From: an uncultured Spirochaetaceae bacterium
GTDB lineage: Bacteria; Myxococcota_A; UBA9160; UBA4427
DNA length: 30,820 bases
Assembly: GCA_964466005.1 (NCBI GenBank)
Contig: CAYXLY010000001.1
Location: 1-30,820, forward strand
Direction of reading: 5' to 3'
The first letter of the stretch is position 1; each line of letters starts with the position of its first letter. The notes below the pieces were generated by a model. The model ran no database searches, was not told the DNA's origin, and worked only from the letters and a program-made list of their open reading frames with translations. Below, one piece after another: positions 3,782 to 27,552 of this stretch. Both the position numbers and the translations under genes were made by a program.

Positions 3782-3864
3782 GTTCCCTGGCCTCCTGTAG
3801 ATCGAGTGGCGGCAGGATCCATCCATGCGTAGAAGACTTCCAGAGACAAATATTCATAGTATCA

Positions 3865-3877
3865 TTGCATTCATGCA
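3865..3877. promoter_or_regulatory. Candidate LysR T-N11-A box (TTGCATTCATGCA, containing the TGCAT-TC-ATGCA dyad)
   Basis: Lies in the AT-rich spacer between divergent nmrA-like and lysR genes and overlaps the lysR start, the usual LTTR autoregulatory position. Confidence 0.4.
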
Positions 3878-4781
3878 TCCAACGGATCTCGTCCTCGACG
3901 ACCTGAGCTGGGACGACGTGCGTCTCTTCCTGGCGCTGGGCCGTTCCTCGACCGTCGGCGAGGCCGCCGGCACGCTGCGGGTGGATGCATCGACGGTCTC
4001 GCGCCGGCTCGCGGCGCTCGAGGCCCGCCTGGCCACGCGGCTCTTCGATCGGGGACGTTCCGGACTCGCGGCGACCGAGGCGGCGTTGGAGCTTCTTCCG
4101 ATCGCCGAGCAGATCGAGGAGGGCATCGCGCGTTTTGCGGGTGCTGCCGAGGGCTTCGAGCGCGAGGTGGCCGGCCGAGTCCGGATCAGCTGTCCGCCCG
4201 ACGCAGCGGAGGTCCTGCTGGCCCCGCTGCTTCCCGAGCTGCTGCGACGTCACCCGGCGCTGCAGATCGACGTCGAGGCAGGAGAGGGCGTGGTCGACCT
4301 GACTCGGCGCGAGGCCGACCTCGCGTTGCGGACCGCGCGCCCGAAGCATGGAGATCTGATCGTGACCCGGCTCCTCTCGGTCCGCTGGCGAGCCGCCACG
4401 GCGCCCGCGCTGGCGCGTCGGCTCGATCCACTTCGTGCCTGGGGCGATGCGCCCTGGATCGGGCCCGGAGACCGCCTGGCGGGCATCGCGGCGGCTCGCT
4501 GGCAATCGAAGCACGTCCCCGATTCTGCGACCTCGATTCGCGCGGACAGTCTTCGAACCCAGATCGCGCTGGCCGTCGCAGGCGCCGGCGTGGCCCTCCT
4601 CCCGGAGCGAAGCATCGAGTACTACGGACTCGAGCCCGTGAAGGTCGACCGGAGGCTGCGCGCGGCGGCGGCCGAGTGGCCCGAGGACGAGCTCCACCTC
4701 GTGACGCACCGCGCTCTGCGCCACGTACCGCGAGTGCGTGTGGTCTGGGAGCTCCTGCTCGAGAAAGTCGGACGACGATAG
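3873..4781 (+). CDS. LysR family transcriptional regulator
   Basis: N-terminal HTH (WDDVRLFLAL..AAGTLRVDASTVSRRLAALEARLATRLFDR), substrate-binding domain (DLTRREADLALR), divergent from its likely target. Confidence 0.95.
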   Translation: MHPTDLVLDDLSWDDVRLFLALGRSSTVGEAAGTLRVDASTVSRRLAALEARLATRLFDRGRSGLAATEAALELLPIAEQIEEGIARFAGAAEGFEREVAGRVRISCPPDAAEVLLAPLLPELLRRHPALQIDVEAGEGVVDLTRREADLALRTARPKHGDLIVTRLLSVRWRAATAPALARRLDPLRAWGDAPWIGPGDRLAGIAAARWQSKHVPDSATSIRADSLRTQIALAVAGAGVALLPERSIEYYGLEPVKVDRRLRAAAAEWPEDELHLVTHRALRHVPRVRVVWELLLEKVGRR

Positions 4782-5776: not shown

Positions 5777-5821
5777 GACGGGGAGGAGCCCCGATCCGGC
5801 CCCGAGCGCTCCCGCCCCGTC
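5777..5821. terminator. GC-rich hairpin between convergent genes
   Basis: GACGGGGAGGAGC pairs imperfectly with GCTCCCGCCCCGTC. No U-tract. Confidence 0.3.
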
Positions 5822-7304
5822 AGAACTCGTAGAAGAGCTCGGCCAGACCGGTGAGCTGATCGTCCCGGTCGCTTCTCGAATCGCTCCGGCTGCCGTTCGC
5901 GAAGAGCTCCGAGTTCGAGAGGTTCCGATCCCATCGGACCTCCCCCCGGAGCATCAGTCCTTCGGCCAGCCGGTGATCCAGCGTGGTCGTCCAGGACACG
6001 ATCTCACTCTGCCCGACGACCCCGTCGCCTAGCAAAATCGAGAACGGCTCGTCGCCGCCGGCGACCACGCCCGCGGGTCCGAGGGGCTCGGAGATCGGCT
6101 CGATGCGGGTCGCGGAGCCTCCCGGGGAGAGCGTCGTCGTCGTCGTGCTCCGCTGACGCCCCCGGACGAAGCTGCGATCCGCGCGGAGGTACTCGACGCG
6201 GGTCGCCAGCCCGGTCGCTTCGGTCAGCGCCCATCGACCTGCGCCGGCGACGCCGTGCACGTCGCCGTCGGCGGTGTCGTCTCCGTGCGTCCTCACCCAG
6301 GTGTAGTCGAGCCAAAGCGCGAGGTCGTCGGTCGGGAAGACTCGCACGACCGCGTCCAGAACCGACGTGAAGCAGTCGTCTCCCGAGTCACAGCGGTTCG
6401 TGCCCGGGGTCGAAGGGGGAAGCGAAGCGCCGGTGATCCGGTCGTCCTTTCCCCAGAAGCCGCCGACCTCGATCCCGAATCGGTCCCGGACCAGAGCGAC
6501 CTCTCCGTAGTAGACCTTGTCCCGGCTGGTATCGACGTTGGACGCGACGAAGACGTCGTTCACGATTCCCGCGGTGAGGACCAGCCCGTCTAAGACCGCG
6601 GTCGAGGCCTGGACGCCAGTCGTCGCATTCGGCTGGAGCTGGAAGAGGAGGCCCTGACTGATGTTGAAGTTCTGGCTGGTCTGCATGCTCTCGGCCCCGA
6701 GAACCTTGGGCAGCCGACCGGCGTCGAGCTGGACGCCGTGGCCCACCGGAGCGAGCCAGCTCGCGTAGGCGGTGTAGATCAATCCCGAATCCCGATCGCC
6801 ACCCTGGGACTCGGCGGTCTCGCCCCAGACGAGGTCCGCGTGAAACCCGCCTCGACTCTCCTCGGTCGGCGTCTTGTCCAGGGTGATCCATGCCTGGTCG
6901 ATCTGGAACGTATTGGCGTTCGGATGCCGGAAGGAGCCGAAGACGTCGCCATCGTCGTCGTCCGGATCGAGGAATCGGTAGCTGAAGCTCGACGCGAAGA
7001 CGCCGCTCACCTCGACCCTCTCGACGAATCGGCCGAGCCCCGAACGCGTGCCCGCCTCGTGCTCCTCGACGAGGCCGGCGTCGGACAGCCTCTCCTGCTG
7101 CTCGTCCACCTTCGTCTTCGCAGCCTCGAGCGCTGCGGAGGTCGCCTCCAGCCGATCCTCCATCTCGGTCAGCCGCTGCTCCATCGAGCGGAGCTGTGCC
7201 TCGACCTCGGATCCGGTGGCGGAGGCAGCAGCGGCCTGCGCGGCGAGTCCTGCCATCGCGAATGCCGCGACGAGTCCGGCCTTCTTCATCGAGTCGATCG
7301 GCAT
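5820..7304 (-). CDS. Outer-membrane beta-barrel porin (BBP2/DUF1597-like) with N-terminal coiled coil
   Basis: Signal peptide (MKKAGLVAAFAMAGLAAQAAA), coiled coil, FQIDQAWITL, YTAYASW, LDAGR..LGAE..NFNIS, C-terminal aromatic strand ending YEF. Confidence 0.85.
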   Translation of the reverse strand: MPIDSMKKAGLVAAFAMAGLAAQAAAASATGSEVEAQLRSMEQRLTEMEDRLEATSAALEAAKTKVDEQQERLSDAGLVEEHEAGTRSGLGRFVERVEVSGVFASSFSYRFLDPDDDDGDVFGSFRHPNANTFQIDQAWITLDKTPTEESRGGFHADLVWGETAESQGGDRDSGLIYTAYASWLAPVGHGVQLDAGRLPKVLGAESMQTSQNFNISQGLLFQLQPNATTGVQASTAVLDGLVLTAGIVNDVFVASNVDTSRDKVYYGEVALVRDRFGIEVGGFWGKDDRITGASLPPSTPGTNRCDSGDDCFTSVLDAVVRVFPTDDLALWLDYTWVRTHGDDTADGDVHGVAGAGRWALTEATGLATRVEYLRADRSFVRGRQRSTTTTTLSPGGSATRIEPISEPLGPAGVVAGGDEPFSILLGDGVVGQSEIVSWTTTLDHRLAEGLMLRGEVRWDRNLSNSELFANGSRSDSRSDRDDQLTGLAELFYEF

Positions 7305-7603
7305 GGAAGATCCGCCTTTGTCCTGCTCGCGGCCGCCCTCGTCGCAAGGCCCTGGACCGGGTGCTGCGACAGGACGCGACCGGCCTGCACGAGAGTCGCA
7401 GCGCCTACCGTGCGAGGAGTAGCACAGGGATGACGGGGGCTTGAGGCGGAGGGTCTTCCGTCGAGCGCTCGCCACAGCTCCTCGCCGCCTGTCATGGAGG
7501 ACGCCGTCGGCCGGCGCAGGAGGCGCCCGCGCGGGGGTCTGGAGGTCGAGGACCACGCGAGAGGCGAGCCCGAGACCTCCTCGCTCCCCTTTGCCTGCCT
7601 CCC

Positions 7604-7609
7604 TATAAT
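7604..7609 (+). promoter_or_regulatory. Perfect TATAAT, possible sigma70 -10 for the DUF2062 gene
   Basis: Consensus -10 in very GC-rich DNA, ~100 bp upstream of ATG7712. The -35 at 17-bp spacing (TCGCTC) is poor. Confidence 0.3.
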
Positions 7610-7711
7610 CCGGGGCTGCGACGACCATTCTGGCGACGCGACAGCCGACGGGAGGGGAGCGGCAACGGACAGCCCTCTGCGTCGAGCGGGAAGGCCCCCC
7701 GAAAGGAATCG

Positions 7712-8606: not shown

Positions 8607-10154
8607 ATGAACGGTGCAGAGAGTCTCCTTCGATCCCTGGTCGACTCGGGCGTCGAGCTCTGCGTGACGAACCCCGGGACCTCCGAGATGCATTTCGTCG
8701 CGGCGCTCGATCGCGTGCCTGGCATGCGGCCGGTGCTCGGCCTCCAGGAGAACGTCGTCACCGGCGCCGCCGACGGCTACGGGCGGATGCTCGACAAGCC
8801 GGCGGCCACGCTGCTCCACCTGGGCCCCGGCCTCGCCAACGGCCTCGCCAACCTGCACAACGCCCGACGCGCGCATACGCCGATCGTGAACGTGATCGGC
8901 GATCATGCGACGACCCATCGCCATCTCGACGCGCCGCTCACCTCGGACGTCGAAGCCGTCGCGGCGCCCTTCTCGCATTGGGTCCGGGTGTCGACGAGCT
9001 GTCGCAGCGTCGGCCGGGACGCGGCAGAGGCCGTCGCCGTGGCTCGTGCGCAGCCGGGACAGATCGCGTCGCTGATCCTGCCGGCGGACAGCTCCTGGAA
9101 CGAGCCGGGCGTGCCGGCGAAGGCGCGGCCCGTGCCCGAGCCGAGCGCGCCTCCGAGCGAGACCATCGACTCGATCGCCGCTCGTCTGCGAGAGCACACG
9201 CCCGCCGCGATCCTCCTCGGCGGTCGCGCGCTGCGCGAGGAGTCGCTCGCGCTGGCCGCAGCCATCGGAGAGGCGACAGGGGCGCGGATCCTCACCGACA
9301 CCTTCTTCGCCCGCCTCGAGCGCGGCGGAACGCGGCCTTCGATCGATCGCATCCCCTACTTCACGGAGCAGGCCGTCGAGAAGCTGGCCGACGTCGCGGA
9401 TCTCGTCCTCGTCCACACCCGGGCGCCCGTCGGCTTCTTCGCCTATCCCGACAAGCCGAGCGTGATCGCGGACCCGAAGACGAGGATCCATACGCTCGCC
9501 GAGCTCGAGGAGGACGCCGAGGAGGCGCTGCGCGCGCTGGCCGAAGCGCTGGGCGTGCGGAAGATCGAGCCGGGCGCGTATCGCTCGCGGGCACCGCGCC
9601 CGGAGCGCCCGACGGGAGCGCTCGATCCGATGGCGATCGCCCGGGCGGTCGGGGCGCTCCTGCCCGAGAACGCGATCGTCGTCGACGAGTCGGCGACGGC
9701 GGGCCTCGGGCTGCTGCCGGCGACCGAGTCGGCGCCGATCCACGACTGGCTGTCGCTGACGGGCGGCGCGATCGGCCAGGGAATCCCCTCCGCGACGGGC
9801 GCAGCCCTGGCCTGCCCGGACCGTCGCGTCCTGAACATGCAGGCGGACGGCTCGGCCATGTACACGATCCAGGCCCTCTGGACCCAGGCCCGCGAGAGCC
9901 TGGACGTGACCACGGTGATCCTCGCCAATCGGAGCTATGCGATCCTGAACCTCGAGCTGAACCGGACGGGCGCCGCCCCGAGCCGCGTCGCAGGCGAGCT
10001 CTTCGACCTGAGTCGGCCCGAGCTCGACTTCGTCTCGATCGCCGCGGGCCTCGGCGTGCCGGGCGTCCGGGTCGAGGATGCGGAGTCGTTCACGAAGGAG
10101 CTCGACCGGTCGCTGCGCGAGCCCGGCCCTCGCCTCATCGAGGCCGTTCTCTGA
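8607..10154 (+). CDS. ThDP-dependent enzyme, acetolactate synthase large subunit-like (MNGAESL..ANPGTSEMHFVAALD subfamily)
   Basis: NPGTSEMHFVAALD, TGAADGYG, HLGPGLANGLANLHNA, ThDP motif ADGSAMY..N. AGGAAGG upstream of ATG8607. Confidence 0.92.
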   Translation: MNGAESLLRSLVDSGVELCVTNPGTSEMHFVAALDRVPGMRPVLGLQENVVTGAADGYGRMLDKPAATLLHLGPGLANGLANLHNARRAHTPIVNVIGDHATTHRHLDAPLTSDVEAVAAPFSHWVRVSTSCRSVGRDAAEAVAVARAQPGQIASLILPADSSWNEPGVPAKARPVPEPSAPPSETIDSIAARLREHTPAAILLGGRALREESLALAAAIGEATGARILTDTFFARLERGGTRPSIDRIPYFTEQAVEKLADVADLVLVHTRAPVGFFAYPDKPSVIADPKTRIHTLAELEEDAEEALRALAEALGVRKIEPGAYRSRAPRPERPTGALDPMAIARAVGALLPENAIVVDESATAGLGLLPATESAPIHDWLSLTGGAIGQGIPSATGAALACPDRRVLNMQADGSAMYTIQALWTQARESLDVTTVILANRSYAILNLELNRTGAAPSRVAGELFDLSRPELDFVSIAAGLGVPGVRVEDAESFTKELDRSLREPGPRLIEAVL

Positions 10155-11982
10155 CCTCGGAGACGGGCGCTCCCGGCTTCCTCGACAGCCGCTCCGGCGT
10201 GTACCAGATCGGCGAGGTATAGGCGCGTTCCTGGATCAGGACCCTCTGACCCGCCAGAGGCGTTCCGTAGCGAGCGGCGTCGATCGCGTTCCAGCGCGGG
10301 GTCACGATCTCGAGCACCCGGGCGTAGTAGAACGCCGGCTGCTCGGGGTCGAAGTCCGGGTCCCGCCAGACGGCCGCCATCTCGCCATCGCCCCGCAGCG
10401 GATCTTCCGCCACGACCACGTCGACGACCTGCTCGCGATCCGTTCCGTCGCCCTCGAGCCAGCCCTTCACGATCTGGATCCGCTGGAGCGCCGCACCGGC
10501 CGGGTCACGCAAGGCCGCCAGCAGGAAGGTCGGCGCCGGGTCCTCGCCCTCCGGAGGCGAGTCGAGGTCGCCGCCCATCGGAACCCCCTTCGCACGGCCC
10601 GTGCGCGCCGTCTCCCGACCGCGCGCATCCGCCGCCTCGAAGCGCCAGCCCCCGAAGAAGAGCACGGTCATGCGCGGACCCGTCGTCGCGTAGACCTCCT
10701 TGCGCCGCAGGGCGTCGAAGATCGCCGCCCGGGTGTTCTCGCGCGCCCAGACACCCGCATAGCCCGCTGCCGCCTGCTCCCAGCTCATGGTGGAGGCGGC
10801 GCCCGGCACGCGGGAGCGGATGAACTCTCCCTCCATCCGCCGACTGCCCGGCGGCATGTTCGCCGTCTTGCCCCAGTAGTCGTCCTCGTCCGCGGTGGCG
10901 AGCGACGTATGCGCGTCCGTGCTTCCGATCAGGCCGAAGCGGAAGGGATTCACGCCGAGGCGCGCGAGCACACCGAGCCCCGTCTTCAGGGCGGCCCGTG
11001 CATAGCTCCCGGCGTGCATCGAGGGCTCGGTCTTCGCGAGCCCGAAGATGTTCGTCTCGTCCCATCGTTCGTAGTCCGCGAACTCGTCGTCGGGCGAGAG
11101 GAAGGGATGCGTCTCGCTGTCCCCCTTGATCTGGGTCACCTCGACGATCGGCTCGTAGCGGGCGCGGAGACGCGCCAGCTCGGCGTCCATCGCACCGCCC
11201 CGGGAGTCCTCGACCGCGAACATCAGGCCATTGGAGAGATTCGAGTTGTGCGGGATCGCGAAGGCCTGGCCGCCCGTCTCGGCCTCGTACCGGGCCAGGA
11301 AGTCCCAGAGATCCTCGGGGTGGATGCTGTGGACGGCCGAGAAGGGGAGGATGCGCTTCGTCTTGTCCGGACCGTCCCGGAACAGCACGTTGCGATGGAG
11401 ATTGTTCCCGCCCGGCGTCGAGCCCCACTCGTAGCCCACGATCGCGCTGAAGCGACCCGGCTCGTCGAATCGCTCGGCGATGTCGACGACGTCGTCCCAG
11501 ACGAAGCGCTGGATCGACTCGTCCTCCATCAACGGGTCGTCCTGAAGGAGCGCGTTCAGGGCGTTGATGTCCTCCGGACCGAAGATCGGGTTCTCGGCGA
11601 TGAGGCGCTTCACCTTCGCGGCCGTCTCCGAGTCCTCGACGATGGGATGGCCGTCCCGGATCATCGAGAAGACGCCCAGGTACTCCGCATGATCGGAGAC
11701 CACCAGGAAGTCGAGGGGGCGATCGAGCTTCGCAACCGCGCCGGCACCGGTCGTCACCGCCTCGCCGCGCGCGAAGCGATAGGCGGCGTCCGGTCCGAGC
11801 GTGAAGTTGTTGAAGAGATTCGCGTCGAGCGAGTAGGCGCTATGTACGTGCGTGTCGCCCCAGTAGAGCTCCGGCAGCGGCGCCTCGGCACGGACCGCTC
11901 TCGGCGCCGCGCCAGCGAGGCCCGAGAGCAGGAGCAGGAGCAGGAGCGACCCTTCCATCGCGGAACGAAATCCAGGTTTCAT
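10135..11982 (-). CDS. DUF3604 domain protein (exported, PHP-like metal-dependent hydrolase)
   Basis: Signal peptide; WGDTHVHSAYSLDA, SDHAEYLG, GYEW, NLHRNV, IPHNSNLSNG, EVTQIKGDSE, GSTDAH, QERAYTSPIWY. Confidence 0.9.
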   Translation of the reverse strand: MKPGFRSAMEGSLLLLLLLSGLAGAAPRAVRAEAPLPELYWGDTHVHSAYSLDANLFNNFTLGPDAAYRFARGEAVTTGAGAVAKLDRPLDFLVVSDHAEYLGVFSMIRDGHPIVEDSETAAKVKRLIAENPIFGPEDINALNALLQDDPLMEDESIQRFVWDDVVDIAERFDEPGRFSAIVGYEWGSTPGGNNLHRNVLFRDGPDKTKRILPFSAVHSIHPEDLWDFLARYEAETGGQAFAIPHNSNLSNGLMFAVEDSRGGAMDAELARLRARYEPIVEVTQIKGDSETHPFLSPDDEFADYERWDETNIFGLAKTEPSMHAGSYARAALKTGLGVLARLGVNPFRFGLIGSTDAHTSLATADEDDYWGKTANMPPGSRRMEGEFIRSRVPGAASTMSWEQAAAGYAGVWARENTRAAIFDALRRKEVYATTGPRMTVLFFGGWRFEAADARGRETARTGRAKGVPMGGDLDSPPEGEDPAPTFLLAALRDPAGAALQRIQIVKGWLEGDGTDREQVVDVVVAEDPLRGDGEMAAVWRDPDFDPEQPAFYYARVLEIVTPRWNAIDAARYGTPLAGQRVLIQERAYTSPIWYTPERLSRKPGAPVSEVRERPR

Positions 11983-12140
11983 CCGGTCCCCACTCGTCGT
12001 CGCTTGCACGGGTTCGTCTTGGGATGCGTGGCCGTCGGACTCGATCGAAGCCCTCGCGGCGACTTCCTGCCAGCACATCTTCTACACTCCCGGACGCGTA
12101 CTTGCATGCACACGGGAGCTTCCCGGGAGATCGCTCGATC

Positions 12141-14996
12141 GTGACGTCCGTCCAGGAGCCCACGACAGAGGCCCGTCAGGATAGAGGCTCGACGATCCGC
12201 CGCAACGGAGCCCCGGAGCTGCCCCTGCGCTCCGAGACCCGGGTCCGCTGGATCGCCACCTTCACGCTCTTCCTGCTGATGGCCGCGCATACGCTGATGG
12301 AGACCGGCCGGGATGCGCTCTTCCTGGCCAACATCCCGGTGGAGCGTCTTCCCTGGGTCTACATCGTGGTCGCGTTCTCCGCCGTCGGGCTCTCGCGACT
12401 CGTCGCGAACGGTACGACGAACACCTCGCCCCGGACGCGCCTCATCCTGCTCCAGATCCTCGCCGCGACCTCGGTCCTCGCGTTCTGGTCGGCCCTGGGC
12501 GGGTCGGGCCCCTGGCTCTACTATGCGCTCTACGTCTGGAGTGGAGTGATCTCCGGAGTCGTCGTCGTGACCTTCTGGATGCTCCTCGGTGACCTCTTCA
12601 CGATCACCCAGGGAAAGCGCCTCTTCGCCTCGATCGCCATCGGCGGATCCTTCGGAGCCCTGGCCGGGTCGGGCCTCGCGAACGGACTCGCCCCGACGCT
12701 CGGCGCGGACTCGCTGCTGCTGGCCTCGGCCGGCTTCTTCGCGATGAGCGCGCTGGCTCCCGTCTGGCTGGGTCGCGACGGCGATCCGCTCCCGGAGCCC
12801 CGGGCCTCCTCGATGCCCCCGCGGCCCGCTGCGTCCGTCAGCCTGCGCGAGGGCATGAGTCGGACGCTCGCGAACCCCTATGCCTGCCGGGTCGCCGTGC
12901 TGGTCGCGCTGGCGAGCGCCACGCTCACCCTGGGCGATTATCTCTTCAAGAGCGTGCTGACCGAAGAGGTGCCCGTCGACCAGCTCTCGACCTGGCTGGC
13001 CCGGATCTACTTCGGCCTGAACCTCGCGTCGATCGCGATGCTCGCCATCGGCGTGACACCCATCGTCCGCCGGGTGGGCGTCGATCGCTCGCTCGCCGTG
13101 CTGCCCGCGCTGATCGCGCTCGCCACGGTCGGCGTCTTCGCCGGGCTCGCATTCCTGGCGATCATCCTGCTGAAGGCGAGCGACGGGATGCTCAGGTACT
13201 CGCTGCACAAGACGGCGAGCGAGCTGCTCTATCTGCCGATGGAATCCGGGCTGAGATCCGCCGTGAAGGGCGTCATCGACCTCGCCGGAGACAGCATGGC
13301 CAAGGCCCTCGCATCGGTCGCGATCCTGGGCCTCGTGGCGCTCCCGCAGCCGAGAATGGCCGTCGCGCTCGCGGTGCTGCTGATGGCGGGTCTCTGGAGT
13401 GCGGCGGCCCTGCGACTTCGGCGGCCCTATCTCGACGTCTTCCGGAAGACCCTCCGGGAGGGCGCGATCGACCTCCGGATCGAGTTTCCCGAGCTCGACA
13501 TCGACTCGGCCGAGTCCCTGATCCAGGCGCTGAGCGATCCGGACGAGCGCGTCGTGATCGCGGCCATGGACCTGCTGACCGAGCGCGACCGCTGCTCCCT
13601 GATCCCGAGCCTGATCCTCTATCATCCCTCTCCGCGCGTCGTCGAGCGAGCCATCGACATCTTCGCCCAGAAGCGCCATGCCCATGTCCTGGACTTCGCC
13701 GACCGACTGATCGACCACGAATATGCGGCGGTCCGATCGGCGATCGTCCGGGCGAGTGCGCTGCTCGCTCCCGATCGCGCGCGCCTGGAGACCTTGAGCC
13801 ATGCCGACTGTCCCTGCGTCCGCGTGAGCGCGGTCGCCGGGCTGGTCGCCCATGACTGGATCGATCCCGAGAAAGCGCTGGCGGAGCTCGACGTCGCGCT
13901 CGTGCATCCCCATCCGGATACGCGCATCGCGGTCGCCAACGCAGCCAAGCTGCGTTATTCGGAGCTCTACCGCGAGCCCCTGCAGCGTCTCGCTCGGGAC
14001 CCGGATCCGGAGGTCGCTCGCGAGGCGGTCCGGGCGATGCGCGAGAGCCGCGATTCCGGGTTCGTCGATCCCCTGATCGGACTCCTCGACGACAGGCGGA
14101 TCCGCGAAGAGGTCCGGGCCGCCCTGCTCGAGAGGGGCGAGTCGGTGCTGCCCGCCCTGACCCGGGCGCTGGAGGCTCCCGACACTCCGGCGGCCGTTCG
14201 CCGCCATCTGCCGCGCACTCTGTCGAGATTCGACTCCATGGAGGCCGTCGGAATCCTGATGCACGGCCTTCGACATGGACCGAGCGGAATGATCCGCTAC
14301 AAGATCCTGCGCGGATTGCAGCCCCTGCTGGAAGGTCCGCTCGGCCGCTCCGTCGACACGACCCCGCTCGTGGAAGAGCTCGAGGACACGATCGACCGCA
14401 CTCTCCATCTGCTCCACCGGGAGGCCGAGATCGCGCGCGGACAGAGCGAGCGACCCGATCGGGCGACGGCCGGCGGCCGCCTCCTGCTCGACCTGCTGAG
14501 GGACAAGCGCAAGCTGGCGACCAGCCGGATCTTCCTCCTGCTCTCGCTGCTCTACCCGAACGAGGACTTCCGCACGATCGAGAACGGCATCCGGAGCGAC
14601 CGGCCTGTGGCGCAGGCGAGCGGGACCGAGCTCCTCGAGCATCTGCTTCCCCGCGATCTCGCCTCGACCCTGCTCGGCATCCTCACGCCCGGCTCGGCGC
14701 GCGATCGGCTCCAGGCCATCGGCTCGACGCGCTCGTCCGAAGAGAAGCTCGACTACCTGCGCACCGTCGACGAGCTCGGCCACGACTCGAGTCAGGCCGT
14801 TCGGGCCTTCGCCCTCTACCATTCGGGCGAGCTCGAGCTCGAGAGGCTGCGGGAAGAGGATCCGCGAGTGGGACCGGACCGGGCTCGCGTGCGGAGCCTG
14901 CGGGAGCGCGCCCTCGAGATCATCGAGGGACTGCCCGATGCCCTGGCCCTCCAGGCGCTCGATCCCGGAGAGAGTCCGGGCGCCTCCGATGCGTGA
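12141..14996 (+). CDS. NTT/TLC (Npt1/Npt2) family nucleotide translocase fused to HEAT repeats
   Basis: ~11-12 TM N-terminal half (ETGRDALFL, FWMLLGDLFT..GKRLFASIAIGGSFG, YSLHKTASELLYLP..KGVID), then helical HEAT-like repeats (ALSDPDERV, LARDPDPEVAREAVRA). GTG start with GGGAGA RBS. Confidence 0.85.
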   Translation: MTSVQEPTTEARQDRGSTIRRNGAPELPLRSETRVRWIATFTLFLLMAAHTLMETGRDALFLANIPVERLPWVYIVVAFSAVGLSRLVANGTTNTSPRTRLILLQILAATSVLAFWSALGGSGPWLYYALYVWSGVISGVVVVTFWMLLGDLFTITQGKRLFASIAIGGSFGALAGSGLANGLAPTLGADSLLLASAGFFAMSALAPVWLGRDGDPLPEPRASSMPPRPAASVSLREGMSRTLANPYACRVAVLVALASATLTLGDYLFKSVLTEEVPVDQLSTWLARIYFGLNLASIAMLAIGVTPIVRRVGVDRSLAVLPALIALATVGVFAGLAFLAIILLKASDGMLRYSLHKTASELLYLPMESGLRSAVKGVIDLAGDSMAKALASVAILGLVALPQPRMAVALAVLLMAGLWSAAALRLRRPYLDVFRKTLREGAIDLRIEFPELDIDSAESLIQALSDPDERVVIAAMDLLTERDRCSLIPSLILYHPSPRVVERAIDIFAQKRHAHVLDFADRLIDHEYAAVRSAIVRASALLAPDRARLETLSHADCPCVRVSAVAGLVAHDWIDPEKALAELDVALVHPHPDTRIAVANAAKLRYSELYREPLQRLARDPDPEVAREAVRAMRESRDSGFVDPLIGLLDDRRIREEVRAALLERGESVLPALTRALEAPDTPAAVRRHLPRTLSRFDSMEAVGILMHGLRHGPSGMIRYKILRGLQPLLEGPLGRSVDTTPLVEELEDTIDRTLHLLHREAEIARGQSERPDRATAGGRLLLDLLRDKRKLATSRIFLLLSLLYPNEDFRTIENGIRSDRPVAQASGTELLEHLLPRDLASTLLGILTPGSARDRLQAIGSTRSSEEKLDYLRTVDELGHDSSQAVRAFALYHSGELELERLREEDPRVGPDRARVRSLRERALEIIEGLPDALALQALDPGESPGASDA

Positions 14997-15927
14997 GCTT
15001 CCGCTCGTCTCGCCTCTGGACCGCGCGCTCTTCCTGAAGGCCCAGCCCTACCTGGCAGGCCTCCCTCCCCGGGTGGTCGCCGCGCTGGCCGAGCATACGG
15101 AGGAGCGCGAGCTCCGCGCACGGGATCCGATCTACGAGAGGGGGACACCACCGCGGGAGCTGCTCTTCCTCTCGACGGGCGGCGTCCGACTCCAGTACGG
15201 AGAGCCCGGAGGCATCCCTCCGATCGACGTGAGAGCGCCCGGCGGCGTCGGGCTGATGGAGCATCTCGCACGGTCGGAGGAGCCTCCCGCCGCCTGGGCG
15301 CTCGAGGACACCCAGGCCCTCGCCATGGACCTGCACGTGTTCATGCAGCTGATGGAGGAGGATTTCCAGCTCTATCAGGCGATCGCGCGAAGCCTGGGCC
15401 GAGCCGTTCTGGGGGCACGGCACGCGCTCGGTCGCCGCTGTCCCGCGGAGGCGGGCTATCCGCAAGGCATCCCGGACACGGCGCCCGAGCCCCTCGATCT
15501 CGTCCAGAAGCTGGTGCGTGCGCGCGAGGCGCCCTTCTTCCGGGAGACCAACGTGACGGTGCTGACCGAGCTCCTCCGATTCCAGCAGCCCCGACGACTC
15601 TCGCGCGACACGACCCTCTGGCGCCAGGGAGACCCCGTCTCCTCGATGGCGCTCGTCCTGGAGGGAGGCTTCGAGACCCACTGCGCCGACGTCGCCCTCG
15701 CGTCTCCAGCGGGATCGATGCTCGGCGCCTGGGAGATCTTCGCGCTCGAGCCGAGGGCCGAGACGGCGATCGCGACGACGGAGAGCCGCATCCTCGAGAT
15801 CGACCGGACGCATTTCACGGACGTGCTCGAGGATCGCTTCGAGTTCGCTCTCGACTATCTCGGCAAGCTGGCTCGCGAGACGATCCGACTCCGTTCGATC
15901 TCACCGGAAGGCCGCAAGGAGCAGTAG
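14989..15927 (+). CDS. Tandem cyclic-nucleotide-binding (cNMP/CNB) domain protein without HTH
   Basis: Two repeats (LDRALFLKAQPYL..IYERG..L.FLSTG and LVQKLVRAREAPFF..LWRQG..M.LVLEG..GAWE..PRAETA). Start overlaps the upstream stop (ATGCGTGA). Confidence 0.85.
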   Translation: MRELPLVSPLDRALFLKAQPYLAGLPPRVVAALAEHTEERELRARDPIYERGTPPRELLFLSTGGVRLQYGEPGGIPPIDVRAPGGVGLMEHLARSEEPPAAWALEDTQALAMDLHVFMQLMEEDFQLYQAIARSLGRAVLGARHALGRRCPAEAGYPQGIPDTAPEPLDLVQKLVRAREAPFFRETNVTVLTELLRFQQPRRLSRDTTLWRQGDPVSSMALVLEGGFETHCADVALASPAGSMLGAWEIFALEPRAETAIATTESRILEIDRTHFTDVLEDRFEFALDYLGKLARETIRLRSISPEGRKEQ

Positions 15928-15945
15928 CAAGAGAGACGCCGCTGC

Positions 15946-16773
15946 TCAGAACTCGACCCTGAAGGCCAGCCCGCCCGGGATGGGCGCCACGGACCAGCTC
16001 GCCTGGGGCTCCTCGGGTCGAGCCGGCCCGGAGACGAAGGCCCGATAGGCCTCGAGATCCTCCTGACCCTTCCAGGGCTCCGTCCAGAGCATGAGCTCGC
16101 CGGCCAGCGTACTGACCCCGATCTGTGTCACGGCATCGGACGGATTGCCGTAGAAGATCACGGTGAGGCCGGCCGCGGTGTTGAGCGCCACGTTGCCCGC
16201 ATGGGCCAGCCAGTTGTAGCGACGCTTCGAACGGTGGGCGACCCGAGCGAGCTGGGCCTCGCCTGCGCGGAGCCGCGCCATCGAGGCCGCGCGTCCCTCG
16301 CCCTCGATCTCGCGAATCGGAGACGCGCCGAGACGTGCGGGAGTCGGATCGAAGACGAGGCGCGCCACGCCGAAGGCGGCCTTGCCGGCCGTGAGGGCTC
16401 CGTTCAGCCGGTCGTCATGCTCGTTCGCAAGGCCCGCCTGGAGCCCCCCGATCCCGATCCCGAGCGTCCATCCCGAGGTGAAGCCCGTCTGCCAGAAGCG
16501 CGCGTAGGGTGCCCGCTCGTCTAGACGGCGGCTCAGGAAGGCGATCCGTCGCTCGATCTCCGCGTCGTCGAGGTCGCTGAGATCCCCCGAGATGACCGCC
16601 TCCCGCACCGGACGGGTCGAGTCCGTGTCTCCATCGATCTCGGAGGAGAGCGCCTCCGAGGCGCCTGTCGGGCTCGAGACGAGCAGGAAGAGAAGCAGGA
16701 CGAGGAGGCTCAGGGGAAGGCCCGGACCGAATCGCTCATCCGTCTGCGGATCCTTCGTCCCGATCGACCGCAT
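15946..16773 (-). CDS. Hypothetical exported/envelope protein
   Basis: Purine-rich RBS, hydrophobic leader, Gly-rich hydrophobic segments, C-terminal WSVAPIPGGLAFRVEF. Confidence 0.65.
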   Translation of the reverse strand: MRSIGTKDPQTDERFGPGLPLSLLVLLLFLLVSSPTGASEALSSEIDGDTDSTRPVREAVISGDLSDLDDAEIERRIAFLSRRLDERAPYARFWQTGFTSGWTLGIGIGGLQAGLANEHDDRLNGALTAGKAAFGVARLVFDPTPARLGASPIREIEGEGRAASMARLRAGEAQLARVAHRSKRRYNWLAHAGNVALNTAAGLTVIFYGNPSDAVTQIGVSTLAGELMLWTEPWKGQEDLEAYRAFVSGPARPEEPQASWSVAPIPGGLAFRVEF

Positions 16774-16882
16774 CCTCTCCCTCTTCCTCTTTCTCTTCCC
16801 CGCTCTCCAACGGCTCCGGAGGTCGGCTTCGCTACAGTCCCGCGAATCCTCCCGAAACAAAGAGCCGACAGGAACCCGCCCC

Positions 16883-17995
16883 ATGCCGTCGAGGCCGCTG
16901 AAGCCGCCGCGCAGGACCGACCCCTCTCGCTGCGCAGCGCTTCGTAGAATCCTCATTCTCTCATCGCTTCCGATCCTCTGGATCTCCCTGTCTGCCGGAC
17001 TGGGCTGCGTGGCCGCGAGCCCAGAGCCCCCTGGCGAGCTCTCCGAGCGTCCCGCTCCGAAGGCCCCCGGGCCCCTTCGTCATTGGCCTCTCGATCCCGA
17101 GAGGCTCGAGACGGCCCTGCGCAGCGACCCGATCGAGGTTCTCTCGGAGCGTTATGCCGGAGCCGGGCTGACCGGGGCCTCCCGCGTCGAGCTCCGCCTG
17201 CTCGAGGCTGGACTCGAGATCTCTGCAAAGTGGAAGCCGATGCCCCCGGGATTCGACGGGATCAACAACTCGCCCCGCAAGGAGCTCGCCGCCTACGAGG
17301 TCCAGAAGCTCGTCCTCGACCCCTCCGACTACGTCGTGCCGACCTCGGTGGCCCGCTGCCTCCCGGCCTCCGCCTTCCCCGATCCGACGGAGCATGTCGA
17401 GGAACGTTTCCCGGGCTCCCGATGCGAGCTCGGCGTCCTCTCCGTCTGGCTGGAGAACGTGACGCTACCCGAGCAGCTGCTCGATGTGAAGCGCTTCGAA
17501 GAGAATGAAGGATATGCGCGGCATCTGGCCCGATTCAATCTCGTCACCTACCTGATCCTTCATCAGGACGGGCGACGCGGAAACTTCCTCGTCTCGACCG
17601 ACCCGGAAGATCGACGCGTCTTCGCCGTCGACAACGGCGTGGCCTTCAGTGGCATCTGGTACAACTGGTTCGTTCCCAACTGGAAACGAATCCGGGTCCC
17701 TGCGCTCGATCAGCGCTCCTTCGAACGGATGCGGGAGCTCGATGCCGAAGACCTCGAGTCCCTGGCGGTCGTCGCCGAGCTCCGCCGTCTCCCGGACGGA
17801 ATGCTCGTTCCGGTCCCGGCGGGCCCGATCCGCGAGCGGGACGAGGGCGTCCGCATCGATGGGCCGACCCTCCAGCTCGGCCTGACCGAAGACGAGATCG
17901 AGAACCTCTTCGAGCGGATCGAGGAGCTGATCGAAGAGGTCGAAGAGGGGGATCTCTCGATCCTTCCGCCGCCCGGCTCGAGAGAAGACCTTTGA
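16883..17995 (+). CDS. Putative exported (lipo)protein with an atypical protein-kinase-like fold (PI4K type II / Fam20C / SCO1664-like)
   Basis: Leader ending SAGLGC; Gly loop AGAGLTG; AKWKP; KELAAYE; VVPTSVAR; GVLSVW; YLILHQDGRRGNFL; VFAVDNGVAF. Confidence 0.75.
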   Translation: MPSRPLKPPRRTDPSRCAALRRILILSSLPILWISLSAGLGCVAASPEPPGELSERPAPKAPGPLRHWPLDPERLETALRSDPIEVLSERYAGAGLTGASRVELRLLEAGLEISAKWKPMPPGFDGINNSPRKELAAYEVQKLVLDPSDYVVPTSVARCLPASAFPDPTEHVEERFPGSRCELGVLSVWLENVTLPEQLLDVKRFEENEGYARHLARFNLVTYLILHQDGRRGNFLVSTDPEDRRVFAVDNGVAFSGIWYNWFVPNWKRIRVPALDQRSFERMRELDAEDLESLAVVAELRRLPDGMLVPVPAGPIRERDEGVRIDGPTLQLGLTEDEIENLFERIEELIEEVEEGDLSILPPPGSREDL

Positions 17996-19410
17996 AACGT
18001 CCGGCTTCGCTCCGCCTCCTCGCCGATCTCCGGCCCGGCGAGGGGCCGATCGCGCTCCTGATGTGCAGCTACTTCTTCCTCGTGATCACGAGCTTCTGGA
18101 TCCTGAAGCCCCTGAAGAAGACGCTCCTGCTCGGCCTCTACTCGGACCGGAGCTTCCTGCTCTTCGGCCAGGAGCTCGGCGGGCCCGAGGCCGAGCAGGT
18201 CGCCAAGGTCGTCAACATGGCGGTCGCAGCCGTCGCGGCCGCCGTCTTCTCCATGCTCGCCGCCCGCTATCGACGGCAGCAGCTCACCTACATCTCGACC
18301 TTCTTCTTCATCGGCGCCTACGGACTCTTCGCGGTCGTGCTCGGCGACCCCTCCGTGCCGGCCGTCTGGAGCTTCTATCTCCTCGGCGACCTCTTCAGCA
18401 CCCTGATGGTGGCCACCTTCTTCGCATTCCTGAACGACAGCGTCTCGCCGGACGCCGCGAAGCGGCTCTTCGGGCCGATCGGGTTCGGAGGCGTCGCGGG
18501 CGGCGTCTTCGGTGCGAGCATCGTCGCCTACTTCATCTCCCTGGCGTCGCTGCGCGAATGGCTCGCCGTGACGACCGCGATCGCCCTTCTCATCCTCTGG
18601 ATCGCCCGGGCGGCCGGCCGTCGCGTGGCGACGACGAGCGGCTCCGGCCCGGGATGGGGCGACGAGAGCGGCTCGAGCGACGGATCCTCGCCTTCCCCGG
18701 TGGCCTCGCCGCCATCATCAGCCCCGACGCCATCGGCCTCCCCATCGCCGAACGACATGGGCGGCAGTCCGGCATGGGCGGGAGCGCGCCTCGTCTTCCG
18801 CTCCCCATACCTGCTCTCGATCGTCGCGGTCGTGGCGATCTACGAGATCGTCTCGACGGTGGTCGACTATCAGTTCACCCGGGGAGTCGTGCATTTCGTG
18901 AGTGACGAGGCGGCGCAGCGGCAGCATTTCGCGTCCGTCTTCGCCTTCACGAACTGGACGTCGATGATCGTCCAGCTCTTCCTGACCAGCTTCGTGATGC
19001 GCCGCTTCGGACTGGTCGTGGCGCTGATGATCCTGCCGGTCGCCCTCTTCTCGGCGAGCGGGGCCTTCATGCTCTTCCCCACCCTCTGGATCGCCAGCTC
19101 GCTGAACACCGTCGACAACGGATTCAGCTACTCGATCAACCAGTCCGCCAAGGAGGCGCTCTACGTCCCCACGACGAAGCAGGAGAAGTATCAGGCCAAG
19201 GCCTTCATCGACATGTTCGTCCAACGCTTCGCGAAGACCCTCGCGGTGGGCGTGAGCCTCACGACCGCTACCCTCTTCCCGACCTTCGGCGCGGCGCGGG
19301 GCCTGACGTTCTTCCTGCTTCCGCTGATGCTCGCGTGGGGCATCGCGGCCCGATATGCCGGAAGGCGCTTCGCCGAAGCGACCGAGAGGCGGCCCCGTCC
19401 ACCGCTCTGA
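17992..19410 (+). CDS. NTT/TLC (Npt1/Npt2) family nucleotide translocase, stand-alone
   Basis: FWILKPLKK, FFAFLND..DAAKRLFGPIGFGGVAG, YSINQSAKEALYVP..KYQAKAFID; ~12 TM. TTG start overlaps the kinase stop (TTGA). Confidence 0.88.
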   Translation: MKRPASLRLLADLRPGEGPIALLMCSYFFLVITSFWILKPLKKTLLLGLYSDRSFLLFGQELGGPEAEQVAKVVNMAVAAVAAAVFSMLAARYRRQQLTYISTFFFIGAYGLFAVVLGDPSVPAVWSFYLLGDLFSTLMVATFFAFLNDSVSPDAAKRLFGPIGFGGVAGGVFGASIVAYFISLASLREWLAVTTAIALLILWIARAAGRRVATTSGSGPGWGDESGSSDGSSPSPVASPPSSAPTPSASPSPNDMGGSPAWAGARLVFRSPYLLSIVAVVAIYEIVSTVVDYQFTRGVVHFVSDEAAQRQHFASVFAFTNWTSMIVQLFLTSFVMRRFGLVVALMILPVALFSASGAFMLFPTLWIASSLNTVDNGFSYSINQSAKEALYVPTTKQEKYQAKAFIDMFVQRFAKTLAVGVSLTTATLFPTFGAARGLTFFLLPLMLAWGIAARYAGRRFAEATERRPRPPL

Positions 19411-21826: not shown

Positions 21827-23568
21827 CTATCGACGTCCTCGGACCAGACGCCCGGGCAGCGCGCCCGTGGCCTGTCCGTCCCGGAAGACGATCTCTCCCG
21901 CGCAGATCGTCGCAACGTAGCCCTCTGCCCGCTGGAGGATCCGCGAGGCGCCCGTCGGCAGATCCGGCGTGATCTCGGGAAAGCCCAGTCGAACCCGATC
22001 GAGATCGATGAGATTCAGATCGGCCCGTCGGCCGGGCGCCACGATTCCCCGATCCGTCAGCCCATAGAGAGCGGCGCCCTCCTGGCTCATCATCTGGACT
22101 GCCCGCTCGAGCGGAAGCCGCGGCCCCCGGCTGCGGTCGCGCACCCAGTGTTGCAGGACGAAGGAAGGCCAGCTCGCATCGCAGATCATGCTGCAATGGG
22201 CTCCGCCGTCGCCGAGACCGAGCACGCTCGCCTCGTCCTGCATCATCTCGCCCACGGCGTCGAGGTTGCCGTGGGCGTAGCCGACGAAGAAGACGACCAT
22301 CATGCGGGTCGTCCCGTCCTCCGAGCGGGCCGCGAGGTCGACCATCGTGTCGTAGAGCAGATGCATCGGGTCGACGCCCGAGGCGGCGGCCCGCGCGCCG
22401 ATCGACTCCGCGGGATCCGGCTCGAAGACGACCCGCCGTCCATGGCGAAGGTGCTCCCGAGCGCAGGTCCCAGGACCATCAGGCTGGGATTGTCACGCGA
22501 GGCTTCGTCCAGGATGCGGGCTCGACGTGCCGGGTCCTGGAGCGCTCCGACCCGCTCGCGATGAGGCCGGGCTGCAATCTCCTGATAGGCGGGACTGACG
22601 GCGAAGGGGTTGAAGGTGTCGAGTGAGAGCATGAGGCCGCCGCCACGGCTCAGGACCTGCGGAACCAGCTTCGCGCCGGCCGCGTTCGCCTCGTGCGTCT
22701 TGCGCATCCCCTCCCGCCACTCCTCGGGATAGGCGTGCACCTGCGGCGAAGTGAAGGTCACGGTCGCGCCCGTGGCCAGGCTGATCTCGCGATAGAGATC
22801 GACCTCGCGCGGGATGCCCCCCTCCTCCTCGTTCGTGCCTCCGATGGGGACGGATTGCATCAGCTGGCCGCCGCCCTTCACCACCGCTCGAGTGAGAGCC
22901 ATCAGCTCCTCGCCCGAGGCGAAGGTGCCCGGCACGGGGTCGCCGTGAATGCTCGTGTGTCCGGGCAGGCGATTCGTCGAGAAGGCGAGCGCACCGGCGC
23001 GCACGCCTTCCTCGACCAGGCGCGCCATCCGGTCGAGGTCGTCGGCCGTGGCGGGCTCCTGACGCGCTCCACGCTGGCCCATCACGTAGACGCGGAGGGC
23101 GCCGTGCGGAATCTGCGCGCCGACGTCGATCGTCCGCGGCCGCTTCTCGAGGGCGTCCAGGTACTCGGGGAAGCTCTCCCAGGCCCAGTCGATGCCCTCG
23201 TGCAGGGCCGTTCCGGGAATGTCCTCGACCCCCTCCATCAGCTCGATCAGCCAGCCGTGCTCGTCGGGCTTCGCCGGCGCGAAGCCGACCCCGCAATTGC
23301 CCATGATCACCGTGGTCACGCCATGCCAGCTCGAGGGCGCCAGCATCGGGTCCCAGGTCGCCTGGCCGTCGTAGTGGGTGTGCACGTCGACGAACCCCGG
23401 CGTGAGGAGCCGTCCGTCCGCATCGAGGACCTCGCCCCGGACCTCTGCGATCGTGCCCGCATCCGCGATCTCGGCGATGCGATCTCCCTCGACGCGGACG
23501 TCGGCGTCGCGGGCCGGTGCGCCCGTCCCGTCGACGAGCCGCGCGTTCCGGATCAACAGGTCGGCCAT
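21827..23568 (-). pseudogene. N-acyl-D-amino-acid deacylase-like amidohydrolase, split by a frameshift near 22432-22434 (real or sequencing error)
   Basis: [11 protein letters not shown] and GNCG in the 5' part; SDGGAH-equivalent GDGGAH and PGRRADLNLID in the 3' part. One extra G restores a continuous 580-aa frame (..MDGGVVFEPDPAESIGARAA..). Confidence 0.85.
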
Positions 23569-26676: not shown

Positions 26677-27552
26677 TCAGCGCGTCTTCTGGATGACGTT
26701 CTCGGCGAACCAGTGGATGGCGCCGATCTTCTCCTCCAGCGTCTGGGTATCGGGCTCGGCGAGATAGGGATTCCGGAAGGCGACGATGGCCTCCTGGATC
26801 CCGAGATCCTCGAGCTTCCGCACGCCGTCGACACTGAATGCCTCGGCGCTCATCGACTGGTACTCGAAGGGCAGATGGTCCCGACCGTACGCCTTCCGGT
26901 ACTCCTCGATCTGGCTCACGGTAGCCGAGAGATCTTCGAAGCTGCCACCGGCGTGGATGAAGCCGTCGGCCTGCCGCGCGGCGCGCCGCAGGGCCGGCTT
27001 CGCATGTCCGCCGATCAGGATCGGGACGGGCTCGGAGGGGGCCGGGCAGATCTTGATCGAGTCGAGCTGGAAGATCTCTCCGTCGTAGGAGAAGTACTCC
27101 CCGCTCATGAGTCCCTTCACGATGTCGATCATCTCGTCCATCCGCTTGCCGCGCTTCTCCCAGGGGATCTGGCAGGCCGCGAAGTCGTCGGGCCAGGGGC
27201 TGATCCCGACGCCGAAGCCGAAGCGGTCGTTCGTCAGCACGGCGACCGAAGAGACCGACTTGGCGACCACCACGGGCTGCCGGACCGCGAGCTTCATGAC
27301 GGAGGTCGTGAACCGGATCCGCGTGGTCACGGCGCCCATCGCCGGAATCAGCGAGAAGGGCTCGAGAAAGGGCACGCCGTCCAGGAACTCCCGATCCCCC
27401 GTCTCGTTGTAGGGATATTGGCTGTCCGACTCCTCCGGGTAGCAGATGCTGTCGGGGAGCGTGAAGGTGTCGAAGCCAGCCTCCTCGACGGCCATCGCCA
27501 GCGGCAGGTAGAACTCGGGGTTGCACATGGAGGCGTGGTACGCGAATCGCAT
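26677..27552 (-). CDS. LLM-class, probably F420-dependent oxidoreductase (second paralog)
   Basis: EEAGFD..PDSICYP..YPY..PFLEPF, RQPV.VAK..S.AVLTNDRF..GVG, ILIGGH...ALRRAA..DG. Confidence 0.9.
   Translation of the reverse strand: MRFAYHASMCNPEFYLPLAMAVEEAGFDTFTLPDSICYPEESDSQYPYNETGDREFLDGVPFLEPFSLIPAMGAVTTRIRFTTSVMKLAVRQPVVVAKSVSSVAVLTNDRFGFGVGISPWPDDFAACQIPWEKRGKRMDEMIDIVKGLMSGEYFSYDGEIFQLDSIKICPAPSEPVPILIGGHAKPALRRAARQADGFIHAGGSFEDLSATVSQIEEYRKAYGRDHLPFEYQSMSAEAFSVDGVRKLEDLGIQEAIVAFRNPYLAEPDTQTLEEKIGAIHWFAENVIQKTR

Follow-up and report, generated by a model that had tools for sequence, protein, structure and literature searches.

A five-gene module combining ATP/ADP-translocase-like carriers with a putative exported kinase in a soil or lake bacterium

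A DNA stretch of 30,820 nt from an uncultured bacterium deposited as Spirochaetaceae (GTDB lineage Myxococcota_A; assembly GCA_964466005.1, contig CAYXLY010000001.1), here called the window, was analysed. Its segment 12141-19410 is one conserved, co-inherited module of five genes, in which two carriers of the nucleotide-translocase type (NTT) lie next to a cyclic-nucleotide-binding protein, an exported protein and a kinase with a predicted export signal. The DNA runs containing the window sequence are soil and lake metagenomes. The window has a G+C content of about 68% and genes were therefore picked by a model of the third-position GC content (GC3), complemented by Pfam scans. Both agree with the six genes that the initial annotation had proposed here, namely the five of the module and a DUF3604 gene to their left.

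The module starts with NTT-HEAT (12141-14996, plus strand), whose start codon is ambiguous (GTG at 12141 or ATG at 12024). It is followed by CNB (14989-15927, plus strand), which encodes a tandem cyclic-nucleotide-binding protein and whose ATG overlaps the stop codon of NTT-HEAT by 8 nt (ATGCGTGA). Two unannotated genes come next. ENV (15946-16773, minus strand, ATG at 16773) encodes a 275-aa protein with a signal peptide, and the kinase gene (KIN; 16883-17995, plus strand) is oriented divergently to it. According to the sequence reading, both are separated by 109 nt (16774-16882), presumably a shared regulatory region. A scan for promoter and terminator consensus sequences between 9900 and 19700 gave no signal above shuffled expectation. 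The last gene, NTT2 (17992-19410, plus strand), encodes a stand-alone TLC carrier and its TTG start codon overlaps the stop codon of the kinase gene (TTGA).

The kinase had no significant match in Pfam, NCBIfam or the PDB sequences, even when a profile was searched against the PDB. The Pfam family PF00454 (PI3_PI4_kinase) scored 15.2 bits (E = 0.021), which is below its cut-off of 27.1, with an alignment spanning the catalytic loop and the DxG motif; a precomputed match to PF00454 exists for one of the 120 kinase homologs listed. An AlphaFold model with a mean pLDDT of 81.7 was compared with the PDB using Foldseek and the best match was PI4KII-alpha (4hnd_B, E = 1.5e-8, prob 1.00, TM 0.45-0.48); the next ones were ordinary protein kinases and MavQ, a lipid kinase of Legionella. 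As the model matches PI4KII-alpha, the assignment as a kinase holds at the level of the fold, and the earlier kinase call is borne out at this level. In an alignment of 26 diverse family members, K116/K118, E134, H227-x-D229-G-R-x-G-N234, D250-N-G252 and the pair Cys159/Cys181 were invariant. By analogy, K116/K118 would be the ATP-binding Lys, D229 and N234 the Asp and Asn of the catalytic loop, and D250 the metal-binding Asp. The counterparts of the HxDGRxGN and DNG motifs in PI4KII are DRxxxN and IDNG.

The N-terminus of the window kinase carries a signal peptide and a lipobox-like site (LSAGLGC, Cys42). A signal peptide or lipobox is found at the N-terminus of most of the 26 aligned kinases, and 59 out of 81 kinase homologs have a hydrophobic N-terminus. 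Neither a phosphoinositide substrate nor a cytosolic localisation was indicated; the signal peptide, the lipobox-like site and the Cys pair point to export. Because the Pfam threshold was missed and the localisation is unlike that of PI4KII, the protein is not called a PI4K and can be described, on the basis of the model, as a putative exported atypical kinase with a PI4KII-like fold. At 90% identity its family comprises at least 627 clusters; at 50% identity, 646 were found in a set of 1.84 billion representatives. Homologs were found in 246 GTDB species genomes, mostly of Myxococcota, 'Deltaproteobacteria', Binatia and Syntrophobacteria, with some in Acidobacteriota and Gemmatimonadota.

NTT2 matched Pfam TLC with 52.8 bits (cut-off 21), and the match covered profile positions 276-489, the C-terminal half. 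When a profile of NTT2 orthologs (alignment A4) was compared with the PDB, 9j3n (E = 1.7e-17) and 9j3j (E = 3.4e-17) were retrieved and no other transporter matched. The motifs FxxFxN...AKRxYxLxGxG and YSxxxSxKExxYxPxxxxxKxKxKAxID are common to NTT2 and the solved NTT1. In AtNTT1, nucleotide transport depends on the charged residues K155, E245, E385 and K527.

In NTT-HEAT, roughly residues 30-490 form an NTT-like carrier domain of the MFS type, and a C-terminal HEAT-repeat domain, predicted to be cytoplasmic, follows. Its TLC score of 24.0-24.3 bits passed the cut-off of 21 marginally, MFS_1 stayed under its cut-off, and the match to NTT1 in the PDB was weak (E = 0.0046). HEAT_2 (E = 2e-16) and HEAT (E = 2e-4) were both located C-terminal of the MFS/TLC region. 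Orthologs with 32-75% identity occupy the same position in other loci (L001-3, L027, L035, L038, L060, L080). CNB has two cNMP_binding domains (69.6 bits, cut-off 27.5) without an output domain and is predicted to be cytoplasmic, as it has no hydrophobic segment. A search with PADLOC gave nothing beyond a general resemblance of the cNMP domains to models of Pycsar effectors and cyclases (E = 4e-6 to 6e-3), and an anti-phage defence reading was rejected on this ground.

The two carriers share 18% identity. A recent duplication was rejected as their source because of this value, and the two are ancient paralogs which travel together and did not arrive independently. In a rough neighbour-joining tree, the kinase-linked carriers formed four clades, namely, NTT2-type short carriers, a second short type, split NTT-HEAT and fused NTT-HEAT-cNBD (cyclic-nucleotide-binding domain). 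The NTT2-type short carriers were nearest to the canonical NTTs, and short and long carrier types pair consistently across kinase loci. Fusions of NTT-HEAT with a cNBD were found in kinase loci L054, L020, L059, L039, L010, L023 and L077. NTT-HEAT carriers with a downstream or fused cNBD have been described before and no function was assigned to them (Major, Embley & Williams 2017, PMC5381601). Together with this report, the fusions beside kinases support the earlier suggestion that the HEAT carrier may be gated by cyclic nucleotides (cNMP).

ENV gave no match in Pfam, NCBIfam or PADLOC and belongs to a small family with 15 homologs. Its signal peptide is followed by a helical bundle, and the C-terminus forms a beta-hairpin whose last residue is a nearly invariant F/W. 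The model predicted from an alignment of 14 sequences (pLDDT 76) had no significant match among PDB folds, with de novo helical bundles as best hits (E = 0.011). Hydropathy analysis indicated no strongly hydrophobic segment past the signal peptide. An outer-membrane barrel, considered due to the C-terminal F, was rejected because it does not fit the helical model, and a reading with four transmembrane segments was rejected because it does not fit the hydropathy. ENV is conserved beside a kinase or NTT gene in 9 loci. Its gene position and its fusion to an NTT, described below, suggest that it is an accessory outside the cytoplasm or a substrate.

Synteny was studied in 80 species-level loci anchored on kinase homologs. 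The block of NTT-HEAT, CNB, (ENV), KIN and NTT2 recurs in L001, L002, L003, L027, L035, L038, L046, L060 and L080, with a gene order that is sometimes permuted, and is found in Myxococcota, Binatia and Acidobacteriota. In close relatives, represented by contigs of up to about 100 kb with kinase identities of 69-72%, the order is DUF2062, TPP, NTT-HEAT, CNB, ENV, KIN, NTT2 and luciferase-like; the five module genes are kept and the flanks differ from those of the window.

For linkage counts, 40 kinase loci were used in which both flanks reach at least 5 kb. The distance from the kinase to an NTT-like gene is at most 300 nt in 16 of them and at most 10 kb in 24, and these loci belong to many kinase clades. 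Across all 80 loci, NTT-like genes, although a rare family, occur within 10 kb of the kinase in 38, compared to 6 for the very common SDR family, which served as internal control. NTT-like genes are clustered with kinase homologs far beyond chance. NTT2 orthologs were located directly 3' of the kinase in 13 genome loci. In a reciprocal count on 47 metagenome loci that were anchored on NTT2-type genes and had enough upstream DNA, the kinase was directly upstream in 18. The pairwise divergences of KIN, NTT2, NTT-HEAT and CNB, the four genes covered by the test, were correlated across eight loci (Mantel r 0.67-0.96, p ≤ 0.0008), with two close pairs weighing strongly. This correlation argues against independent acquisition; shared vertical descent would also yield it and it does not show function by itself.

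Further support for a tie between carrier and kinase comes from gene fusions. P0230 and P0282 (804 and 802 aa) begin with an NTT, which a K/R-rich loop and one extra hydrophobic segment connect to a kinase domain (HMM E-values of 2e-74 and 3e-70). For P0230, a called gene exists on an actual contig. The C-terminus of NTTs is cytoplasmic, as established for Rickettsia Tlc1. As the extra segment would cross the membrane once more, the kinase domain of such proteins is predicted to be outside. In a Binatia metagenome-assembled genome (MAG), one continuous open reading frame (ORF; L036:787-3039, plus strand) comprises an NTT (TLC E = 3e-23), a former signal peptide or hydrophobic segment and an ENV homolog, an apparent NTT-ENV fusion. 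The start/stop overlap, the adjacency in many lineages and the NTT-kinase fusions are in line with the previously proposed carrier dedicated to the kinase.

Other fusions join the kinase to exported domains. P0202 and P0250 have a signal peptide, the kinase and a PPP-type metallophosphoesterase, while P0152 has a signal peptide, a beta-lactamase-like domain and the kinase. A 914-aa ORF directly after a kinase gene (L075:11028-13772, plus strand) matched TLC with E = 3e-10 and weakly Metallophos with E = 1e-3.

Exported enzymes are also encoded by separate genes in the kinase neighbourhood. Proteins of about 1010 aa with PPDK_N and PEP-utilizers domains lie beside kinase and NTT genes in 13 kinase loci, for example L059:5826-8858 (minus strand, PPDK_N E = 4e-24) and L012:3224-6154 (plus strand, E = 5e-29). 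They have a Cys-rich N-domain and, in nine out of 14, an N-terminal signal peptide, so that they would be exported enzymes of an ATP-using family. Y_phosphatase3 (PF13350, E about 1e-65) was detected in 12 kinase loci. It directly follows NTT2 in L024, L040, L050, L052, L057 and L063 and also occurs in L039, L041, L047, L059 and L065. In operons of the type KIN-NTT2-phosphatase it carries a LILLGC-type lipobox and is therefore predicted to be exported, while another subgroup has no signal peptide.

Further architectures were found among the kinase loci. The first one, of the Syntrophobacterales type, has a lipoprotein KIN, NTT2 and a lipoprotein Y_phosphatase3 (the six loci in which the phosphatase directly follows NTT2); L037 is a locus of this type that ends after NTT2. 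A second one combines an exported PPDK_N/PEP-utilizer enzyme with one or two KIN, Y_phosphatase3, NTT-HEAT-cNBD and a short NTT. In a third one, a short NTT is flanked by two KIN genes. The initial annotation had suggested extracytoplasmic write/erase enzymes. The lipoprotein phosphatase after the NTT and the exported kinase-PPP fusions, both from related loci, lend support to this idea; DUF3604 as the eraser is not upheld (see below).

A mechanism can be proposed for the module, and it is given an even chance: NTT2 would be an inner-membrane exchanger that trades ATP for ADP and fuels a periplasmic kinase, while NTT-HEAT/CNB would add control by cyclic nucleotides. The direction of transport, the substrate of the carrier and the target of the kinase are those that we infer. 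NTT2, translationally coupled to the kinase, would be a gradient-driven ATP/ADP exchanger that runs outward at the high cytoplasmic ATP level of a free-living cell, delivers ATP at the periplasmic face to the tethered kinase and returns ADP. NTT-HEAT would act as a second carrier with a cytoplasmic HEAT arm that is read by the separate two-domain protein CNB, and nucleotide flux would therefore track the levels of cAMP or cGMP. ENV would be an exported accessory, adaptor or substrate, and the target of the kinase would be an envelope lipid, glycan or protein.

Several points weigh against ATP delivery by NTT2. Free ATP should leak via outer-membrane porins. The score of NTT2 on NCBIfam TIGR00769 (NTP/NDP exchange transporter) is 53.8 bits with a cut-off of 387.2, and its identity to solved or characterised NTTs is only 21-23%; it belongs to a distant branch and may have a cargo other than ATP. 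Concerning the kinase, the Pfam PI3_PI4_kinase threshold is missed, the lipobox of the window protein is imperfect (G-L-G-C) and the phosphate donor remains unproven. The link is not obligatory, as no NTT-like gene was found within 10 kb in 16 of the 40 well-flanked kinase loci and the kinase is missing from 29 of the 47 NTT2-type loci. The NTT-kinase fusion comes from one lineage, with its two clusters being 66% identical. Finally, all characterised natural NTTs import nucleotides, as importers or exchangers (PMC5381601). In favour of delivery, the carrier class is reversible: when a characterised NTT was expressed in a free-living cyanobacterium, ATP was released once external ADP was added (PMC9042829).

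The main rival is nucleotide scavenging by import, which is considered rather unlikely. Both NTTs would then take up external nucleotides. In the periplasm, the exported kinase-fold lipoprotein would, along with phosphatases and PPDK-like enzymes, bind, interconvert or trim nucleotides from outside or from prey and pass them on to the importers. The hosts are soil and lake Myxococcota-like bacteria, and Myxococcota include predatory members. Exported phosphatases (Y_phosphatase3, PPP, DUF3604) near the carriers are what salvage requires, and the inward transport by characterised natural NTTs, as in parasites and plastids, speaks in its favour as well (PMC5381601). However, a kinase depends on an extracellular phosphate donor and salvage gives none. 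The invariant catalytic base and metal ligands argue for catalysis and not for mere binding, enzymes of the ATP-consuming PPDK_N family are exported too, and the fusions tether the kinase to the outer face of the carrier, which fits delivery at least as well as capture.

Alternatively, the NTT-like MFS proteins might not carry nucleotides at all, but the substrate or product of the kinase, such as a lipid head group or sugar phosphate, or the kinase-fold domain on the outside might regulate the carrier as a sensor or pseudokinase. In favour of this, TLC scores are low (24 bits for NTT-HEAT and, on the C-terminal half only, 52.8 bits for NTT2), both carriers are far under the NCBIfam NTT cut-off, He_PIG domains, which are Ig-like and not enzymatic, are fused to related NTTs, and the closest kinase fold is that of a lipid kinase. 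Still, this explanation is judged unlikely given that ADP/ATP carriers are the sole solved transporters retrieved by the NTT2 profile (E = 1.7e-17), with hallmark motifs in common, and that the catalytic residues are invariant in 26 diverse kinases. The exported kinase would also still be left without a phosphate donor.

The He_PIG domain (PF05345) was observed at the C-terminus of P0298 and dozens of P0230 homologs of about 543 aa from Xanthomonadales and Woeseiaceae MAGs, which are annotated by their sources as Npt1/Npt2 or AAA-family ATP:ADP antiporters. Among the P0230 homologs are also gammaproteobacterial NTTs of 770-870 aa (P0283, P0299, P0326, P0359, P0365, P0377 and 16 more) that comprise the NTT, an extra transmembrane segment and, over about 330 aa, a domain bearing the motifs GNTDWS..HN and YDFDFSG. 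This domain weakly matched Pfam CotH with E = 0.0037 in one of two sequences and the kinase family in hhalign with Prob 10% and the motifs in register. It may, as far as these motifs go, represent a second kind of NTT-kinase fusion. NTT2-type genes without a kinase often adjoin a gene for a signal-peptide protein of about 554 aa (L147:1170-2834, L126:1454-3097, L138:4154-5797 and 6 more). It has motifs similar to those of a catalytic loop (DRxxxN) and a metal-binding site (IDxG); no Pfam match was obtained and the hhalign comparison with the kinase family was not significant (Prob 0.8%). In one lineage (L127, L145, L146, L150, L157), NTT2-type genes are flanked by L,D-transpeptidases, that is, YkuD with Scaffold and PG_binding_1, and YkuD_2, a peptidoglycan-remodelling context.

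The initial annotation had counted the DUF3604 gene as a member of the unit, which would then comprise six genes (10135-19410) with DUF3604 as dedicated extracytoplasmic eraser. DUF3604 (10135-11982, minus strand, Pfam E = 6e-208) encodes a metallohydrolase-like protein with a signal-peptide-like N-terminus if it is read from the Met at 11982. It is divergent from NTT-HEAT at a distance of 158 nt, and the kinase is paired with phosphoesterases in other loci. The description as PHP-like had a weak CehA/McbA match (E = 0.0015) as its sole basis. To the left of DUF3604, a gene for a TPP enzyme was found by the gene model and Pfam (about 8610-10154, plus strand). In L001 and L082-L084, DUF3604 is absent and the TPP gene directly precedes NTT-HEAT. 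Among the 80 kinase-anchored loci DUF3604 occurs in one, L007, and is absent from the other 79. There, two tandem DUF3604 genes (L007:3870-8173) are located 2-6 kb upstream of a kinase paralog without a nearby NTT. DUF3604 is a lineage-specific insertion between TPP and NTT-HEAT and not a member of the module. Of the unit proposed earlier, the part from NTT-HEAT to NTT2 is conserved and co-inherited, while DUF3604 is left out, and its role as the module's eraser is quite improbable.

A second insertion of about 7 kb is present on the other flank. The stretch from 19492 to about 26616 is missing in close relatives, in which NTT2 directly precedes a homolog of window 26677-27552. Because close relatives have neither DUF3604 nor the SDR genes, both are read as insertions, left and right of the module, and the flanks of the window are therefore variable. 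The 7-kb stretch encodes two SDRs, a SnoaL-like protein, EthD and a luciferase-like monooxygenase, in addition to a split amidohydrolase and another ORF. The Amidohydro_3 gene (21827-23568, minus strand) is broken into two overlapping ORFs, with profile positions 1-236 in 22300-23568 and 355-472 in 21827-22366. The probable cause is a frameshift, which means either a pseudogene or an assembly error. Further left in the window, a BBP2 (OmpL-like) beta-barrel porin (5820-7628, minus strand, E = 2.5e-40) and a LysR-like regulator (3825-4781, plus strand, GC3 of 0.79 and thus slightly below the gene filter) were found, and both look ordinary.

A chance or purely historical adjacency without functional tie, for which it can be said that many kinase paralogs and NTT2-type genes occur apart and that vertical descent alone gives correlated divergence, is hardly credible in view of genes that stay neighbours at phylum-level distances even though their order changes, of start and stop codons that overlap and of fusions of several independent kinds.

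The periplasm is held to have no ATP, and envelope processes use lipid-linked donors, proton-motive force or membrane-spanning machines. The five-gene module suggests, from its sequence, that some free-living bacteria may pipe ATP over the inner membrane to drive phosphorylation outside the cytoplasm. In a broader form, which is put forward tentatively and with somewhat less than even confidence, a sizeable set of free-living diderms (Myxococcota, Binatia, Syntrophobacteria, Acidobacteriota and perhaps Gammaproteobacteria via NTTs fused to other kinase-like domains) would run an extracytoplasmic ATP economy. ATP exported by NTT carriers would serve exported atypical kinases, phosphatases and PPDK-like enzymes, which would write and erase phosphate marks on envelope components under the control of cyclic nucleotides. 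If true, the pairing and fusion of carriers of the ATP/ADP-translocase family with exported kinases would be a direct exception to the ATP-free periplasm. It would also give a concrete and testable role to the NTTs of free-living bacteria, a question open since the catalogue of 2017 (PMC5381601). With the kinase, an unannotated exported family of about 650 clusters at 50% identity is defined, whose substrates could reveal new envelope modifications.

The NTT-HEAT/cNBD pair is already known. For its extension by a kinase, no prior report was found: in the searchable literature, which leaves most subscription journals outside, no link of the kinase to NTTs, a second carrier, ENV, phosphatases or exported PPDK-like enzymes was reported, and the extension is apparently new. 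Nothing relevant was found in the same literature on a periplasmic kinase, periplasmic ATP or an NTT-kinase link.

In comparison with known systems, PI4KII (4hnd, 4pla, 4wtv) provides the best structural matches to the window kinase (Foldseek E = 1.5e-8 to 1e-4, prob 1.0) at 13-16% identity and a TM-score of about 0.45. With its signal peptide, lipobox-like site and conserved Cys pair, the window kinase would be exported, whereas PI4KII is a cytosolic palmitoylated enzyme. The likeness is one of fold only and phosphoinositide chemistry is not implied. The secretory-pathway kinases FAM20C or VLK, fed by the ATP/ADP exchanger SLC35B1/AXER of the endoplasmic reticulum (ER), follow the same logic of a kinase that is topologically outside the cytosol and relies on a membrane ATP/ADP exchanger. 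This is an analogy only: no FAM20-type structure was among the 50 PDB fold matches listed for the window kinase, the SLC35 carriers of the ER and the NTT/MFS carriers of the window belong to different families, and the periplasm is open outward via porins.

With the canonical NTTs (Chlamydia Npt1 and plastid NTT1; TC 2.A.12), NTT2 shares the family according to Pfam TLC and the profile comparison. Their hosts are parasites or organelles, whereas the host of the window is a free-living soil or lake bacterium, and the proposed net direction of NTT2 would be outward, unlike that of the canonical carriers. The segment 12141-15927 has the same layout as described by Major et al. (2017, PMC5381601), with an NTT-like domain and HEAT repeats followed by a cNBD gene. 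The kinase, the second carrier and ENV are never mentioned there, and in the window the pair sits inside a larger module. Finally, phosphorylation as known from the periplasm otherwise does without ATP: LpxT phosphorylates lipid A there from undecaprenyl pyrophosphate and had no detectable activity with ATP (PMC2229476), which illustrates how the lack of periplasmic ATP is usually solved. LpxT bypasses the missing periplasmic ATP by a lipid donor, whereas the module of the window appears to bring a nucleotide carrier instead.

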